Positions 14,326-63,147 of a DNA stretch of 64,000 bases are shown here, in pieces (within the stretch, counting starts at the first letter, position 1; each line of letters starts with the position of its first letter). Under the pieces are notes generated by a model. That model had not been told where the DNA came from. It worked only from the letters and a program-made list of their open reading frames with translations, and searched no databases. Made by a program: the position numbers and the translations under genes. Origin of the DNA: Botryllus schlosseri (lineage: Eukaryota); contig CM119371.1 in the NCBI GenBank assembly GCA_051294905.1, positions 27,778,001 to 27,842,000 of the forward strand, in the 5' to 3' direction.

Positions 14326-15355
14326 CAGGGTTGTAACCAAGTCACAAGGTTCCACGTCACAAGCCAATCTCACGTTTATAGTTTTGACTCGAGTCAAGTC
14401 GAGTCATTTTGAATTCACCACCGAGTCAAGTCCGAGTCCAAGTCAGTGAGTAGAGCAGGGGTGCGCAAACTAGAGGTCGCCACCCCAATGGGGTCGCTTG
14501 CCTGTTCGCCGGGGTCGCGGAGACGAAAATTATACACCAATGACTATCAGAAGAATGTCAATTAGGCGGATGCTATCGGCAGCTCATTTGTGAATATTTT
14601 AGTTCATTTTTTCAAAATAGAAGAAAAACCAATGCGAACCGGCAAACAAGGTATCAGATCACGCGGAACGTCATTTCAAGCGTCACCTATAAGGTTGGTG
14701 TCTATCAGGGTTGTAACCAAGTCACAAGGTTATGAGTCACAAGTAAATCTCACTTTTTTAGTTTTGACTCGAGTCAAGTCGAGTTTTCTTCAATTCACCA
14801 CCGAGTCAATCCGAGTCCAAGTCAACTATTTGAGGGTCGTGTCCGAGTCCACAACATTGTGACATAACACGTTTGAGTCCGAGTCCAAGTCATTGTGTTT
14901 ACCATTCAGTTTTGACTTCAATCCGGTTGAACCCACTTTTTCAAGTCTGGTCGAGTGATATGGAATGGCCCACTTTCATAATATCGTAATTTTCCTCAGT
15001 TTCTGGCCCTATTTCTCAAGTATAAGGACTGATAGACGAAATACCAATAATGTGGGGACTTTACTATCCTTCGAAGGCGCAATGAAATGTCTGCCTTGGC
15101 CGTCATGAGTTGAGAAAAGTGGGCTGAACCAGATTGAGCAGAAAACTGAACAGTGCACATAATGACTTATTGACTCGGACTTGAGTCAAAACACTACGAC
15201 TCGTACTCGACCCTATAGTCCTCTACTCGCTAACTTGGACTCGGACTTGACTCGACTCGGCGGTTAATAGAAAATGACTCGACTTCACCCGAGTCAAAAC
15301 TATAACATCGAGATTGACTGGTGAATCGGAACCTTGTGACTTGGTTACAAGACTG
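14326..15355. mobile_element. MITE family with GACTC/GAGTC repeats (CAGGGTTGTAACCAAGTCAC TIR), composite locus
   Basis: Left ends at 14326 and 14706, right end at 15355. Relatives at 62584-63147 and a fragment at 34901-35003. No clean TSD. Confidence 0.75.
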
Positions 15356-31263: not shown

Positions 31264-32775
31264 CTACAGCCGCCTTCGTATTATCTCACGTAAAATGCGA
31301 GCAAGGCCCTTTTTCGAATCGGACACCAGGTCATTGAGAACAATTTCCTCCGCTATAAACTCTTCCGAGAACTCATCAAGCCTCAAGGCCGCGAACATAT
31401 CTTCGAAGACAGCCTCTCTGTCATCGTAGTCGTGATTCACCCATTTCATTAGCGCCTCCCATACTTTATCCGCACCGGAGTCATAAGTGGACCTCGACGC
31501 GAGGTACTTTTGCATGTCATCCGGAGACAGATATACAAACTCCGACAAATGCGAAACTCGGAAGAACTCCCCGGTGATACATTCGTCGACGTGGTGTTCT
31601 GTTCGCGTGCACCCGTACTTTTTAGCGAGCTCTTTCAAAAATAAGCAGTGCTGCGGGAACCAGAAGTTCCATTCGTCGTCCGAACTGACGCCGTTCGATT
31701 CGGAGAATCCTACGAACACGCAGAGGCTCGAGAGGAAGGTGCACTCAAGATATGAGTCGGGATTCTCAACGTGGTAAAACATGTCCCGAAAAATGCAGTG
31801 CCTGTCTGAGTCGTTTTTTAGCCACTGTAATATCGACGTGAACTCAGCCGGGCTGCACATGTCCGGTATCTCTGACACGCATGCCATTAGGTCTTCGTGC
31901 GTTAATGTTTCTATGAGAACACTAGTCAGCATTTCGCGGTGATTTTGCACTATGTATTGATTGATGAGTTCTTCAACCTCGCCAAAAGCGTAGTCCCTCG
32001 CTAGAGTTTTAAGAAAAACCAACTCATCGACTTGTATTCTTTCAGGAATACGTTTAGCGCTGCCCAAAAATTGATGCGCCGCTATGCTTTTACAGTTTTC
32101 GCACGTAGAAATGTGCCCGTGTACCCACGCCTCGTTTTGGAACTGATCTACATCAAAGGAACCGAACGGAACAACGTTGACAGCGCGGCAAATTCGATGG
32201 TCAGTGTGGGCGCTCCAAGACTTGAACAATATCCAAATCTGTTCGGAGTCATCGGTAGCTGCGGATGCAATGGATTTCACATCGACTGACGACATATCGC
32301 CGATATTTCTCGTTTGGGCGACTTCGTCCGTGTTGTTGAGAATGAATTCGTTAGTGGCTTGACTCAGCTTCAGTAAGGAATACTGGGTGGACAGTATCCG
32401 CATTTGAACGCAATTGGCAAGGTTGAGATTGTCCGTTAAAAAGTTTTCGCATTGGTTTTTGGCCGGTAGCAGATTCAAATGGTCGGACAGCTCCATCACT
32501 TCAACTACATTGTGCGGGCCTATTTCCAGTTCTTCAGTATACATGTACACGAGGCATATCTCCACCGTGTCTGGCGTGTAACCCACGAGCTCGTAAGTCC
32601 CGTCATTGTTTTCCTTGAAGATGATGTCGTGGAAAAACGAGGAGTTTCGCCCTAGAAACACACGATGTACAGGGAAAAGGGTGAAGTCGACCTTTATGGT
32701 GAAGTCAGTGTAATCGCAGCTGTGGTTGGATCTCTTCAAGTGGCGGGTGCGCGTTAAAACTTGCTCGGGACTCAT
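31264..32775 (-). CDS. BTB/POZ protein with tandem BACK-like domains, no kelch repeats
   Basis: 503 aa ORF. BTB motif TDFTIKV..FPVHRVFL..SSFF..YMYT; BACK-like helices starting at CVQMRILS, LVFLKTLA and CLFLKELA; ends VWEALMKWVNHDYDDR...RL. Confidence 0.88.
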   Translation of the reverse strand: MSPEQVLTRTRHLKRSNHSCDYTDFTIKVDFTLFPVHRVFLGRNSSFFHDIIFKENNDGTYELVGYTPDTVEICLVYMYTEELEIGPHNVVEVMELSDHLNLLPAKNQCENFLTDNLNLANCVQMRILSTQYSLLKLSQATNEFILNNTDEVAQTRNIGDMSSVDVKSIASAATDDSEQIWILFKSWSAHTDHRICRAVNVVPFGSFDVDQFQNEAWVHGHISTCENCKSIAAHQFLGSAKRIPERIQVDELVFLKTLARDYAFGEVEELINQYIVQNHREMLTSVLIETLTHEDLMACVSEIPDMCSPAEFTSILQWLKNDSDRHCIFRDMFYHVENPDSYLECTFLSSLCVFVGFSESNGVSSDDEWNFWFPQHCLFLKELAKKYGCTRTEHHVDECITGEFFRVSHLSEFVYLSPDDMQKYLASRSTYDSGADKVWEALMKWVNHDYDDREAVFEDMFAALRLDEFSEEFIAEEIVLNDLVSDSKKGLARILREIIRRRL

Positions 32776-34355
32776 GAATGACTATAACCGAGTATATCCC
32801 AACAGAATTATAGAAGTACTGTGAAAACATATGTGAATACATTATGAAAATAAGTCCGGTAGAAGCCACATATATTGGTTTGATGCTTGCCTATTGTCGG
32901 CAGATGTGGTTAGTAATGACGTACTTTATTTTTGTAGTACGCAATTAGGTTTTGCTTACTTGCACTATACTTAAACACGTGGATATATACATTTCAATAG
33001 TTCTACAGAGGTTTTTGAAGCAACATCACATATATTTTTACACGTTTGATTGTACCCTGAACACGTCATCAGCCGGGGCATAGAGAGTAAAGTAACACGA
33101 TTTAACGCAGAAAAGTCAACAGAGCCTACCGAGCGAACAACCAAAGACGTTTACATCCATCTATACCAGTGGTCGGGAACCTTTTTCGCCTGAAGAGCCA
33201 TGTTAGCCCTATATTTTCCATTTTAACTCCCAAAAAGCCATACAGGTCAATCAATTGTTACGTCACAATTGAAAATTCGTGACGTCATGACAGTACAAAT
33301 TCGACCTCTTTACACGGGATCAGTCGTTGGCGCCATATTTTCTCTGTAAAAACTGGTCGACTACTAATCTTCCTGTGATAACACAATTAATCGTGAATAG
33401 CTCAGAATTTAAAATAATTCATATCAATCTAATATACCTGTAGCACTGATTCCGAAAATTTAAAAATTGATCGACTTCTCAATTCGGCGGTAACATAAAC
33501 ATTGTACTACACGCCTACATTTTTCGGCAGTACTAGAGAGCTGCTTATTATCAATGAAGAACGTTGATAGCGCATAGCGTAGTTTGTAATTTGGATTTGT
33601 TATTGAAATGTCACTTCCATGGCAATTCACTTTTAGGCGTATATCAGGAATACAATGTGTATTTGAAAACTAGATTGTCATGCAGGCGTTCCTATGTCTG
33701 ATATTCTCTTTGATTAACCAACGTGTGGTGCAATCCAAGATTACGCAGCGTGTGATGCCGGGTACATCGAATTCGCCGGGGATATTGGTCGCTGGCGCTA
33801 CAGCAACCTAAATTTTATGACTTTCTAAAGCAGGGATGTCAAACTCAATTTGTGTCTCGGGCCGGATTCAAGCCTTTAAATCGCTCGCGGGCCGGACCAG
33901 TCTATTGATTCCAAACTGTTACCTCGTGCTCTTGCTTTTCACTGAATACGTCAAAACTCAAAAGCATATATTATGGATAATACACGGATCAAGGTTTTTA
34001 AAGTAGCAGCAAGTCGCAGCACCTTTATTCACAGTGGAATTGGCAGAAATACGATGATTGTCCGGTTGAATGCAGTTCAGAACCGCCAAAACAGTGGCGG
34101 AAACGACGATATAAGTGGGCATACTCTATGCTCCCTTTGATGTAGTCCTAATCTGGCGTTATCCCTGTATATGTGGGGAGTACAAGATATTTAATTGGAA
34201 ACGCGGCCTTTGGAATTCGGTTTATTATTATTACATCGTGAGCCCGGTTTCTCTCATGTCTGGGGATCTATCGGGTTGGAAGTGACACAGCAGTGCGAAC
34301 ATAGATATTTCAATTATATATTTAATATACATTTTAATAATATATTCATATTAAA

Positions 34356-34400
34356 ACCCGAAGCTTTTCGAGCTGACACTTTTCAAGGGCAATCGTCAGC
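34356..34400 (-). ncRNA. Type I hammerhead ribozyme motif (inverted pLTR copy)
   Basis: Exact reverse complement of 36252-36296. Confidence 0.72.
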
Positions 34401-34656
34401 AAATGGAGAATTTCAAAAACATGCATCTAGCTACATTGCATACAACCAATTATGACGTCATAGAAACAAACAACATGAAATACAGGCAAACCGCGAGCGC
34501 AGCTAGTGGACAATTTTCAGATTCACTAAAAATTTCTTCTGCTGACACAAGCGCGGTCGGTGGATTTTAATATAAGTCGATTCCAGTGCAGACAAATGGA
34601 AATTAGTGCGGCCTCTACCTAATATCGAAAATCTTTCATCGCGATAGTTTTTAGCG

Positions 34657-34806
34657 CACGATCATGTTGCCGTGAGCGTCTGTGGTGACACCTCGAGGAT
34701 ACTTGAACTGAGACTCGTTGGTTCCTTCCGTTCCCAACTGGAAAAGATGTCGGCCGTACGTGTTGAAAACTTGGATTCTGTGGTTGGTGGAGTCACTGAC
34801 GACCAC
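34657..34806 (-). pseudogene. Captured exon fragment of an NHL-repeat (TRIM-NHL-like) host gene
   Basis: After ctttcactttttcgcag| reads VVVSDSTNHRIQVFNTYGRHLFQLGTEGTNESQFKYPRGVTTDAHGNMIV, a clear NHL repeat. Confidence 0.9.
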
Positions 34807-34997
34807 CTGCGAAAAAGTGAAAGGTCACGGGAGGACAAATTAAACCATTAAACCAAATTAAACTTTATGCCTCGAACCCGAGCACTCTAAACTGTCAACA
34901 ACTCGAGTCTCAGCACTATGACTCGGACCTGGCTCGGTGGTGAATTGAAAATGACTCGACTTGACTCGAGTCAAAACTATAAAATTGAAATTGACTT

Positions 34998-36149
34998 GTG
35001 ACTGTTGAGTTTAGTTTTAACGATACCATCTACATGCAAACCGACGGTGTAGCTATGGGTAGCCCTCTTGGCCCGATTTTAGCCAATATATTTGTGGGAT
35101 TTCATGAAAACAGACTTTTCGCCGCAGATGAAACCAAGCCTCCATTCATGTACCGTCGCTATGTCGACGACACCTTCGTTATCTGTCAAAATGAGACGGA
35201 GTTCGATGATTTCTTTGTTAACTTGAATTCTCTACACTCGTCTTTAAAATTCACATTTGAAAAAGAGCGTGCTAACTCGTTACCATTCTTAGACGTTCTG
35301 ATGGAAAAACGGGGTATTAGCTTTGTCACTTCGGTTTACCGGAAGCCAACGTTTACAGGGCATTACATACGCTGGAATTCTTTTAGCCCGAATCGCCGTA
35401 AATTAAATTTGATTGGCACATTGGTGCACAGAGCCTTGATGATTTGTTCGGATATAAAATTAAACGCGGAGCTAGAATATATCCGCAAAATTCTAATCGG
35501 TAACGGCTACCCCGAACACATCATCAAGAGTTCTGTGGACAGAAAACTCAGTAATTTCAATCCCAACAAATCACAAAACACGAACACACGGTCTGAGGAA
35601 AATGTATATATACATTTGCCGTGGCTGGGCCCCATCTCTTCCCGGTTTGAAAAGCAATTGATTTCTGCTGTAAATCGCTGTTACGATAACGTAAAAACTA
35701 ATGTTGTGTTTACCACCAAACAATTGCTTCCTGCAACGCGCAAAGATGTTCTTCCTGATTTTCAACAAAGCAATATAGTCTATGATTTCAAGTGCCACTG
35801 TGATTGTCGGTACGTGGGAAGAACAACTCAGCGCTTGCAGGAACGCATCAAACAACATGTCCCCAGCGTTATTAGATCACGCATATTGGACTCTCGCGAA
35901 GACGCAGCCGTAACTGATCTCCGATTACTAGAACGTAATCAGGCCATGGCTATGAACTCTGCCATCGGCAAGCATTTGGCTGAGAATGCAACTTGCGCTA
36001 AAAACTATCGCGATGAAAGATTTTCGATATTAGGTAGAGGCCGCACTAATTTCCATTTGTCTGCACTGGAATCGACTTATATTAAAATCCACCGACCGCG
36101 CTTGTGTCAGCAGAAGAAATTTTTAGTGAATCTGAAAATTGTCCACTAG
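34998..36149 (+). CDS. Penelope-like RT (C-terminal part) + GIY-YIG endonuclease, 5'-truncated; homology starts ~35004
   Basis: QTDGVAMGSPLGP, YRRYVDD, LPFLDV, YRKPT; IVYDFKCHCDCRYVGRT..RLQERIKQH..SAIGKHL..ALESTYI. Confidence 0.95.
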   Translation: MTVEFSFNDTIYMQTDGVAMGSPLGPILANIFVGFHENRLFAADETKPPFMYRRYVDDTFVICQNETEFDDFFVNLNSLHSSLKFTFEKERANSLPFLDVLMEKRGISFVTSVYRKPTFTGHYIRWNSFSPNRRKLNLIGTLVHRALMICSDIKLNAELEYIRKILIGNGYPEHIIKSSVDRKLSNFNPNKSQNTNTRSEENVYIHLPWLGPISSRFEKQLISAVNRCYDNVKTNVVFTTKQLLPATRKDVLPDFQQSNIVYDFKCHCDCRYVGRTTQRLQERIKQHVPSVIRSRILDSREDAAVTDLRLLERNQAMAMNSAIGKHLAENATCAKNYRDERFSILGRGRTNFHLSALESTYIKIHRPRLCQQKKFLVNLKIVH

Positions 36150-36251
36150 CTGCGCTCGCGGTTTGCCTGTATTTCATGTTGTTTGTTTCTATGACGTCAT
36201 AATTGGTTGTATGCAATGTAGCTAGATGCATGTTTTTGAAATTCTCCATTT

Positions 36252-36296
36252 GCTGACGATTGCCCTTGAAAAGTGTCAGCTCGAAAAGCTTCGGGT
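36252..36296 (+). ncRNA. Type I hammerhead ribozyme motif, U3-A8 core variant, predicted pseudoknot
   Basis: GCTGACG..GCCC-TTGAAAA-G-TGTCAGCT-C-GAAA-AGCT-TC-GGGT. Confidence 0.72.
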
Positions 36297-37267
36297 TTTA
36301 ATATGAATATATTATTAAAATGTATATTAAAGTTCTGTACCCCAAAGAGTCTCTTCAATTATATATTTATGTACCTAATATATTTTCCATGTAAACTGCA
36401 TGTAACGGTTATGCATTGACGTTTTCGCTTCTGTAAGTAACTACTTTTTGGTCCATATATTGGTATACAACTCTGAAATTGTGTGCCCTTTTAGGCTTCT
36501 TGACATTGGATGTTATAATTCCACCGAATTGTTGTTACTAGTAGTAACTAGGATAAAACCACAGCACCGCAGTCGGGTGGTTATAATCGGGCCTATGAAC
36601 ATGAAAGTATTTCCTGAAAAAAATGTCAATATTTGTTATAAATGGGCTGGAAAATATAAAAAATTTCAATCTGCTCAGAATTGCTTCGCGGGCTGGATGA
36701 AATCATCTGGCGGGCCGTATGTTTGACACTCCTGTTCTAAAGCGTTCCGAGCCCTTGACCCTGAATGCGCCACTGTCTTGACCTCTCAAATACATGTTTA
36801 TGCTGCCACGAGAATAACTATTCTGGAAGAAAATAGCCCCTGTATCATTGGGAGTTATTATTTTATTTTTAAAGTCCACTTATATACGCATTGTCACTGT
36901 AGTATTTTTGTGCTAGTCTTTCAATTCGAAAATAGCTACCTGCAATTGACTATTGAAAGTACATGCGATTATGCGACGCTTTGACCAAAATCCCTTTCTC
37001 GAGTGGATATGATGTCCGCCGACTTCTGCCTAAATATACTTTTTCAATTAAATCCACCTGCTTTTTATACTAGGAATTTTGTTCAGTAGTTTCTCTATAG
37101 GTTTTGCATCACCTGTACGAGGGAAATCTCATGACAACGAAGAAGAATATCCTCTGTATCAGGGCATCTTAATATTTTCCCCGAACTGCACCAATATTTA
37201 TAGTGCCATTAGTCATGTTGTGCTATAGACCTGCCGATGCCTCTATCAAATCCAAAGGGGTCCATAC

Positions 37268-56286: not shown

Positions 56287-56696
56287 GAGGAGCTTCTTGG
56301 AGGTACAGAACTTCAATATACAATTGAATAGTATATTCATATTGAAATGTATTTTAATCAAAGGCCATTAATTCTGCTATCAGCAAACATTTGTTAGATA
56401 TTCCGATTTGTGCGAATAATTGCCGAGACGACCGATCTCGAATTGTTGGGAAGGGCCGTTCACAACTCACAACCAACGAAAACTCTGTCAACAAATGGAG
56501 TTCGTATATCACCTAAAAATAGTACATTGAACGATCTCTCATTCGAAATTTCATGCTGGTGACGTCATATTTTGTGATACGATTGTTGATATACAATGTT
56601 CTTTCCAATTCTCTGCTAGTTGCTGACGATTACCCCTGACGAGTGTCAGCCGAAAATATTCGGGTTCATTTCAATATGAATATACTATTCAATTGT
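56287..56696 (+). mobile_element. Truncated Penelope-like insertion, second family, with inverted tail
   Basis: Inverted pLTR end at 56287-56349; AINSAISKHL...IVGKGRS and KLCQQMEFVYHLKIVH*; approximate TSD ATAATTCTGTTT/ATAATTATGTTT. An older pLTR copy follows at ~56790-56950. Confidence 0.85.
56622..56665 (+). ncRNA. Type I hammerhead ribozyme motif, canonical core, predicted pseudoknot
   Basis: GCTGACG..ACCC-CTGACGA-G-TGTCAGC-C-GAAA-ATAT-TC-GGGT. Confidence 0.82.
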
Positions 56697-62583: not shown

Positions 62584-63147
62584 CAGGGTTGTAATGAATC
62601 GTGGCATGACTCGACTCGAGTCACGACTTTTTGGTGACTCGACTTGACTCGAGCCATTGTCTCAAATGCGTTAAAATGACTCGACTTGAGTGCATTTGTG
62701 TATTAACTCGCTTGTACTCAAGTCATTGTGTATGACTCAAACCAAGTCGTATGACTCGAGACTAGGACGGCCATTACAGACATTTCATTTTAACTTCGAA
62801 AATAGTAAGGGCACCACGGTATTGGTATTTCGTTCACCAGTCCTAATACTTTGAGAATAGGGCTGAGGGAAATTACGATATTACGAATGCGAACAATTCT
62901 ATATTACTCGAGCGGAGTTGAAAAAAATGTTTGAACCGGATTGAACTTGAAACTGAACAGTTTACACAATGACGTGTACTCGGACTCGAGTCAAAGCACT
63001 ATGACTCGGAGTTGACCCTATACTAGCTGACTTGGACTCGGAATTGACTCGGTGGTGAATTGAAAATGGCTCTACTTGACTCGAGTCAAAACTATAAAAG
63101 TGAGATTGACTTGTGACTTCGAACCTTGTGACTTGGTTACAATCCTG
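62584..63147. mobile_element. GACTC-repeat MITE
   Basis: CAGGGTTGTAA...TTACAATCCTG; homologous to 14706-15355. Confidence 0.8.

Follow-up and report, generated by a model that had tools for sequence, protein, structure and literature searches.

A putative pseudoknot-braced type I hammerhead in the pLTR of a Penelope element from Botryllus schlosseri

The window analysed here, a stretch of 64,000 nucleotides of Botryllus schlosseri DNA, carries at 36252-36296 (+), within a Penelope element's pLTR, a minimal hammerhead motif of type I. In the reading that we favour, with some reservation, a conserved knot helix of 6-7 bp, formed by the 5' flank with loop II, likely takes the place of most of stem II and steadies the active fold, and the RNA would be cut after C36292 only once two same-sense copies have joined through AAGCTT, likely with the help of the element's protein. 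Comparison with related elements revealed that pairing persists despite sequence change in the knot helix, in stem I and at the 3-8 pair. Judged from this comparison of sequences, the helix between the 5' flank and loop II is very probably real, and it probably acts as a brace between stems I and II.

The motif and the insertion that carries it

The motif reads GCTGACG-ATT-GCCC-TTGAAAA-G-TGTCAGCT-C-GAA-AAGCTT-C-GGGT. The sister-family hammerhead at 56622-56665 (+), with an endonuclease remnant upstream (56364-56527), reads GCTGACG-ATT-ACCC-CTGACGA-G-TGTCAGC-C-GAA-AATATT-C-GGGT and combines a C3-G8 core with the same knot. In the variant, the 5' strand of the knot helix, GCTGACG (36252-36258), faces 36274-36280, with six Watson-Crick pairs at a probability of 0.96-0.99 in the nested fold, and stem I joins GCCC (36262-36265) to GGGT (36293-36296). 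The core U3 U4 G5 A6 A7 A8 A9 lies at 36266-36272. It is followed by G10.1 (36273), loop II and C11.1 (36282) within 36273-36282, and by G12 A13 A14, the palindrome AAGCTT (36286-36291) and C17 (36292) within 36283-36292, where helix III would form only as a dimer.

The original prediction had described most of these features, and the sequence read-out agreed with it. The core changes from CTGACGA to TTGAAAA, which converts C3-G8 to U3-A8 with the pair kept (N7 differs too, C to A); stem III is palindromic in both motifs (AATATT and AAGCTT); and stem I goes from ACCC/GGGT to GCCC/GGGT by a single A-U to G·U change. The proposed complement between the 5' flank and loop II was found as 7 bp, six Watson-Crick and one G·U, and C17 falls at 36292, in the cut register proposed. 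Stem II is indeed the single G10.1-C11.1 pair, but loop II of the variant has 8 nt, not 7, with an extra U at 36281. What had been overlooked is an identical copy of the motif on the minus strand at 34356-34400, inside an arm of 338 nt with 100% complementarity.

Scanning the window on both strands with a descriptor gave three matches, namely 36252-36296 (+), 34356-34400 (-) and 56622-56665. The knot-plus-core pattern likewise matched three times in the window, versus 0 in each of 100 shuffles, and a 6-bp Watson-Crick match to loop II is expected in 0.4% of the window's random 16-mers. An Rfam search of the whole window at E<=5 returned zero hammerhead matches, the C3-G8 copy included.

The components of a type I core (3-8 pair, G12A13A14, A15.1-U16.1 and H17) are all present, with the published U3-A8 substitution. 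Stem I is open-ended, 4 bp long and paired beside the core, and the G10.1-C11.1 pair that closes stem II is invariant across families. Stem III of the monomer consists of A15.1-U16.1 and a short loop, and a 6-bp helix is possible between two copies. The palindrome of Penelope minimal hammerheads recurs across families as AAGCTT, AATATT and AAAGCTTT, with a near-palindrome, AACTTGTT, in the distant L038. A Watson-Crick helix of at least 4 bp from the stem I side to stem/loop II, as in pseudoknotted hammerheads, was found in 8/8 families with 5-6 pairs. Published Penelope minimal hammerheads have a helix II of at least 3 bp, usually an additional base following A9, and are described as free of tertiary contacts; because the motif has a 1-bp helix II, no extra base and a covarying knot, it is a variant and not a plain member of that class.

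Several other readings of the motif were rejected. The upstream CTGACGA (36253-36259) lacks a matching stem I and UH site and cannot serve as an alternative core. Nor does a non-circular permutation, as described in part of PMC10085705, apply, since the order of the blocks is the usual one of type I. Conservation of a distal stem I was visible by eye only in the L006 family, and folding z-scores (-0.86 to +0.89) were set aside as uninformative for a pseudoknot. We also observed that in the C3-G8 family (56636-56649) the core CUGAC can pair with GUCAG of loop II as an inactive hairpin, to which the GCUGAC upstream would be a competitor; with the U3-A8 core this hairpin trap is weaker.

The original prediction of a minimal type I hammerhead motif within a Penelope pLTR is supported by its reverse transcriptase and GIY-YIG context, the tail and the pLTR layout. 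A 5'-truncated Penelope ORF at 34995-36149 (+), with homology from about 35004, encodes the reverse transcriptase end as well as, at its C-terminus, a GIY-YIG endonuclease (Pfam RVT_1 and GIY-YIG at E 2e-5 and 5e-4, both below the curated cut-offs). Among 4,656 candidates, 2,815 were relatives at E<=1e-20, and full-length relatives have about 840 aa and up to 59% identity. No extra CxxC zinc-finger motif was visible by eye in the linker between the reverse transcriptase and endonuclease of the translated ORF. The motif lies 3' of the stop codon that ends the endonuclease, and its predicted cut site, after C36292, falls 11 nt before the ATG at 36303, where the ORF start is repeated in the pLTR (MNILLKCILKFCTPKSLF; 36303-36358, +). 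The post-cut peptide MNILLKCILKFCTPKSLF matches the N-terminus of the closest full-length relatives, such as P0122 (MNYLLIAIFKFCTT), P0123 and P0133. The element ends at 36358, beyond which reads of other copies diverge from the reference.

An inverted, further truncated copy of 35994-36331 lies at 34321-34658 (-) and is 100% identical to it; the tail at 36332-36358 (+) is missing from this arm. The insertion is flanked by a 16-nt target-site duplication, TTCAATTATATATTTA on the left (34309-34324, 4-nt overlap with the arm) and its right copy at 36354-36369 (5-nt overlap with the element end). Penelope insertions are described as having a truncation, an inverted 5' copy and a tail at one end, in the part of PMC8557442 drawn on here. 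The ORF, inverted arm, tail and target-site duplication thus match that layout, and the canonical arrangement of endonuclease-bearing Penelope-like elements (reverse transcriptase and GIY-YIG, a pLTR repeating the ORF start, a tail and an inverted truncated copy) is found here. Since the arms are perfect and the target-site duplication is intact, we infer from the sequence that the insertion is young. It would be a dead copy, because its 5' part is truncated and its two motifs do not share a strand. The locus probably cannot cut, because its two motif copies face opposite ways and give no dimer within one transcript, and it is probably inert, because in a transcript spanning the two arms the motif would be paired along its whole length. 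A non-LTR retrozyme, by the definition in the accessible part of bioRxiv 10.64898/2026.07.22.740005, was rejected: the motif is joined to a coding Penelope fragment and is not tandem.

Further observations were made around the insertion. Inside the target-site duplication, about 345 nt of non-Penelope filler (34659-35003) separate the inverted arm from the reverse transcriptase fragment; its last 85-100 nt or so match a dispersed repeat (14356-14438, 14735-14817, 15238-15324 and 63035-63118), and template switching in the course of insertion may have brought the filler in. The window also contains decayed C3-G8 family copies near 2780, 4570, 41750 (-), 50570 (-) and 56890. A weak match to the Penelope protein lies at 33053-33178, and a 505-codon open frame at 31264-32781 (-).

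Pairing of the 5' flank with loop II across families

Related loci were gathered by the endonuclease domain, and the best 80 of 274 confirmed metagenome loci, from 30 of 64 collection parts and mostly of one family, were used. The tally came to 83 loci, 70 of them with the endonuclease end on the + strand; 5 of these were too short downstream, 58 had a core within 2 substitutions and 7 had none. The coreless loci were L012, at a contig end, L017, with an unrelated flank, and five decayed copies of the large family (L020, L021, L023, L072 and L079).

The knot was present in all eight families with a readable pLTR, two from the window and the others from the loci gathered above. Each family combined a single G-C stem II with a Watson-Crick helix of 5-6 bp from loop II to the 5' flank, and the 5' strand always stood 3-6 nt before stem I. 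Five kinds of knot sequence were found: GCTGAC/GTCAGC in both window families, TCTGAC/GTCAGA in the L006/L033 family and L004, TCCGAC/GTCGGA in L013, TGACGC/GCGTCA in L022 and L001/L091, and GCATT/AATGC in the distant L038, which has the extra U of the window variant. The changes in L022/L091 could represent one slippage instead of several substitutions. The chance of a knot match was 0-2.4% per family, and these family counts are not independent, because the families are related. The seventh knot pair was G·U in 7 of 8 rows, which fits an RNA of this strand and not a DNA palindrome.

The pairing of the 5' flank with loop II pointed out in the original prediction was supported by compensatory changes between families. 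With rows anchored on loop II, five of the six Watson-Crick columns changed on both sides. In an unedited MAFFT alignment of six rows, all 84 of 84 cells paired and 6 of 14 pairs changed on both sides, with covariation at 2/7 knot pairs and 3/4 stem I pairs; related rows inflate these counts, and the structure was taken from one row. None of 500 shuffles reached the paired fraction, and slid controls paired at 29-39%. U4, G5, A9, G10.1, C11.1, G12, A13, A14, A15.1, U16.1 and a non-G at 17 were kept in the representatives of all families, and A6 was lost only in the single L004 copy.

In the two genomes from which L001 and L004 come, a pattern search yielded 10 matches, of which three were Penelope copies already in the set and the other seven were not recovered by a hammerhead scan. 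Among viral contigs, 0/10 candidate stretches were related to the Penelope protein, and the knot-plus-core pattern had no match. A separate observation concerns a 52-kb contig (C3 of G001) in a bacterial assembly, which is probably host DNA: it carries three repeated Penelope units with inverted pLTRs (L001-L003, L091-L093), in which the minus-strand hammerheads are intact and the plus-strand ones have core changes.

The 3-8 pair and comparison with known hammerheads

The large related family L005-L083 (e.g. L006:1165, L029:1359 and L033:643) is amplified and carried U3·G8 at 48 of 55 sites, C3-G8 at 5, other letters at position 8 at 2 and U3-A8 at 0, in a count drawn from the best 80 of 274 loci in which L046-L048 are probably one site counted three times. 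H17 was U at 53 of the 55. A Watson-Crick 3-8 pair is thus not needed for this family to spread. When a tree was built from the endonuclease region, the window's two families came out as sisters (98/92; the sister row fills 28% of columns), and the C3-G8 copies L033/L074/L077 formed a clade (99/88) inside the U3·G8 family. The tree was midpoint-rooted, its clades were read without a clade test, no named Penelope or Poseidon reference elements were among its rows, and L004 (36 residues) was left out. The simplest reading would be that U3 arose twice, was fixed once by A8 and reverted once, with U·G tolerated. Among the rows listed, with 66 weaker rows beyond them, N7 (36270, A/G polymorphic among copies) was the sole variant between 36143 and 36316 (38/81 and 17/37 RNA reads; 40 DNA contigs). 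N7 is the one free core position, so its variation fits the hammerhead register.

The U3-A8 swap on which the original prediction centred is not a novelty. About 1,300 U3-A8 hits are reported for Penelope hammerheads of S. mansoni in the text consulted of PMC4209133, Fig. S3 of that paper prints a UUGAAAA core (S. mansoni 4), and natural U3-A8 is active in prokaryotic hammerheads, as far as PMC3088659 was available. It had also been argued that CUGANGA searches would miss the variant. The motif is indeed hidden from the published descriptor, but the core is not the sole cause: the 1-bp stem II and the 6-nt palindrome hide it as well, and because of them the C3-G8 sister is missed too. This descriptor (PMC4209133; stem II of at least 3 bp, 'gaaannuh') cannot match the window motif. 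Since Rfam and the published descriptor miss the whole motif group, counts of Penelope hammerheads are too low. The term 'U3-G8' and a rate for it were absent from the literature found, subscription papers and bioRxiv supplements being outside reach.

The behaviour of position 8 bears on an alternative that is possible, though unlikely, namely that the fold is conserved while catalysis is weak or dispensable, the knotted RNA serving as a protein binding or folding site or as a translation leader and the 3-8 pair drifting. The prevalence of U3·G8 and the nesting of C3-G8 copies within that family agree with such drift, as does the UUGAAGA core of a published Penelope example (Saccoglossus 1; Fig. 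S3, PMC4209133); against it, the window family regained a Watson-Crick pair at 3-8. Catalytic mutants of the anole element still insert in vitro, with no effect of the mutations according to the available part of PMC11167929, and Naiad elements spread without canonical hammerheads, as described in a section of PMC8557442. The catalytic core residues are, however, kept in the representatives of all families and the palindrome is kept through letter changes, and these are the features needed for catalysis and dimer formation. A catalytic role of the knotted fold is the reading we retain.

Each feature of the motif has a precedent, and the combination in Penelope pLTRs was not found in the literature, though the 2017 work of Lunse, Weinberg and Breaker may contain it. 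That work is said to call it common for hammerheads to form a pseudoknot that joins loop II to bases preceding stem I, and the form with a 1-bp stem II and a knot may already be among its alignments. Reviews (PMC6765202, PMC6466107), in the portions available, describe hammerheads from it that share with the window motif the Penelope association, a short palindromic stem III and cleavage as dimers. Our literature search gave no description of a 1-bp stem II with a pseudoknot in Penelope elements, with Lunse 2017, other subscription papers and bioRxiv supplements outside reach.

One of the closest known forms is the Penelope minimal hammerhead of Cervera and De la Pena (2014, PMC4209133). In the text consulted, it is likewise of type I, lies in the pLTR of an element with reverse transcriptase and GIY-YIG, and shares the short stem I, G10.1-C11.1, the palindromic stem III implying dimers and the U3-A8 variant; truncated elements there also carry a second copy on the opposite strand. 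All 56 rows of its Fig. S3, however, have a helix II of at least 3 bp and usually an extra base after A9, whereas the window motif has 1 bp and no extra base, and the form with a 1-bp stem II and a knot occurs in 0/56 of these published examples. A review describes Penelope minimal hammerheads as lacking tertiary contacts (PMC6155905, in the excerpt available), whereas the window motif has a Watson-Crick knot.

The pseudoknotted hammerheads of Perreault et al. (2011, PMC3088659, as seen in part) share a Watson-Crick knot tying stems I and II, a 1-bp stem II with a 6-bp knot, and U3-A8. The example tested there is of type II and from a metagenome, whereas the window motif is of type I (5' flank to loop II), sits in a eukaryotic retrotransposon and needs a partner molecule for stem III. 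The anole Poseidon element PAc also has a hammerhead at the ORF start in the pLTR, upstream of the tail, and likewise shows no RNA-seq read ends at the cut site, but its cut lies 26 nt downstream of the start codon and its core is C3-G8, whereas the predicted cut here falls before the start codon (PMC11167929, available sections). Type I hammerheads in RNA-virus UTRs that drive cap-independent translation share a short helix II and a cut shortly before the start codon (7 nt in PtFV1); their context is viral and their activity demonstrated, according to the text available of PMC13725137, whereas cutting by the window motif is a prediction.

The U-A swap by itself offers nothing new; what the comparison adds is the knot covariation across families and the U3·G8 family. 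Tested hammerheads of Penelope elements cut poorly, need partners or protein and are said to lack the contacts that give speed. The plain Watson-Crick knot of this clade makes available a 45-nt system for breaking and restoring such a contact, in which natural C-G, U·G and U-A core pairs can be compared.

Proposed dimer cutting and the probable pLTR leader

In the mechanism proposed, the knot would cross stem I as an H-type pseudoknot and stand in for the contact that fast hammerheads make between loop I and loop II. A lone copy would have no stem III and would misfold; a source transcript running from one pLTR to the next would unite two copies and be cut to unit length. Modelling and analogy make it reasonably likely that such a transcript is occasionally cut at both copies, a proposal made because of knotted, Penelope and anole precedents together with the predicted misfold of the monomer and the possible 6-bp dimer helix III. 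A hammerhead whose stem II is 1 bp and whose pseudoknot is 6 bp long reaches a cleavage rate of >1.2/min, for which the knot is required (PMC3088659), Penelope minimal hammerheads cleave weakly and slowly, only as multimers (PMC4209133), and the anole Penelope hammerhead cuts only with the element's protein (PMC11167929), each as stated in the passages accessible of these papers. The predicted dimer helix III has -4.3 kcal/mol for AAGCTT versus -0.2 for AAUAUU of the sister. Cutting would be slow or occasional, because the template must keep the tail downstream of the cut.

A broader version of this mechanism appears rather unlikely: a whole clade of Penelope elements would carry a fast, pseudoknot-braced hammerhead gated only by dimers, two pLTRs on one transcript would lead to removal of the capped leader shortly before the start codon and to cap-independent translation or circle formation, and the 3-8 pair (C-G, U·G or U-A) would be a rate dial between families. 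Its translational part was considered because cleavage just before the start codon has been linked to cap-independent translation in RNA viruses (PMC13725137, consulted in part).

The folding of the monomer raises another alternative, in which the helix of the 5' flank and loop II is a brake that keeps new RNA inactive until a partner copy or the element's protein remodels it; we regard it as quite improbable. With a program that folds nested structures only and cannot score pseudoknots, the monomer formed the knot helix and a competing hairpin in which G12 is paired to C17 (probability 0.33-0.65), while stem I was absent. G12 and C17 are thus sequestered in the nested minimum-energy fold of 36245-36305, the extra U36281 of the variant lets helix and hairpin coexist, the helix is the first to form during transcription and the element needs uncut RNA as template. 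The helix itself, however, shares no position with stem I, the core or stem III, all families have it in one geometry (6 bp, a single spare base in the loop and a 3-6-nt linker), and knots of this kind activate the hammerheads tested in PMC3088659, insofar as that report was consulted. We retain the brace as the preferred role of the helix.

Two single-cell RNA runs over the site, of each of which 3-4% was read, showed no pile of read starts or ends; such libraries would not keep cut ends, and the absence, which would agree with weak catalysis, carries that limit. The motif was covered mostly on one strand, with the depth after 36290 inflated by sister-family reads. Reads across the motif indicate that uncut RNA exists and say little about cutting in source transcripts. 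In both runs some reads (13 and 4) switched strand at 36306, either at the inverted junction of another sister-family copy or by a fold-back artefact.

Counted from the predicted cut, the in-frame ATG of the sister family stands at +15, that of the L006/L033 family at +4 and that of L038 at +22. L004 and L013 have an earlier ATG that is out of frame, and a search of 40 nt in L022 and L091 met no ATG. TATA-like boxes were found 46-52 nt before position 3 in six relatives, and none at this distance in the window copy. Given these ATG and TATA-like box positions, the hammerhead likely fills a short leader from the transcription start to the start codon. A TGACGTCA box is kept in both pLTR families (36192-36206 and 56560-56567), followed by ATTGG in the variant; both are likely promoter elements, which we take to be CRE and CCAAT.

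That the complementarity is a DNA inverted repeat or promoter element (TGACG half-sites near the transcription start) with no RNA helix is very improbable: TGAC or CGAC persists in 7 of 8 families and the motif lies just downstream of where relatives have their TATA-like boxes, with the TGACGTCA box at 36192, but L038 has an unrelated knot sequence at the same place, the G·U pair works on the RNA strand only and the 3' arm always fills loop II exactly.

Two ATTAAA hexamers lie upstream of the element end (36314-36319 and 36326-36331), and RNA depth peaks 100-200 nt upstream, which would fit polyadenylation near the tail if the libraries are of the 3' type.
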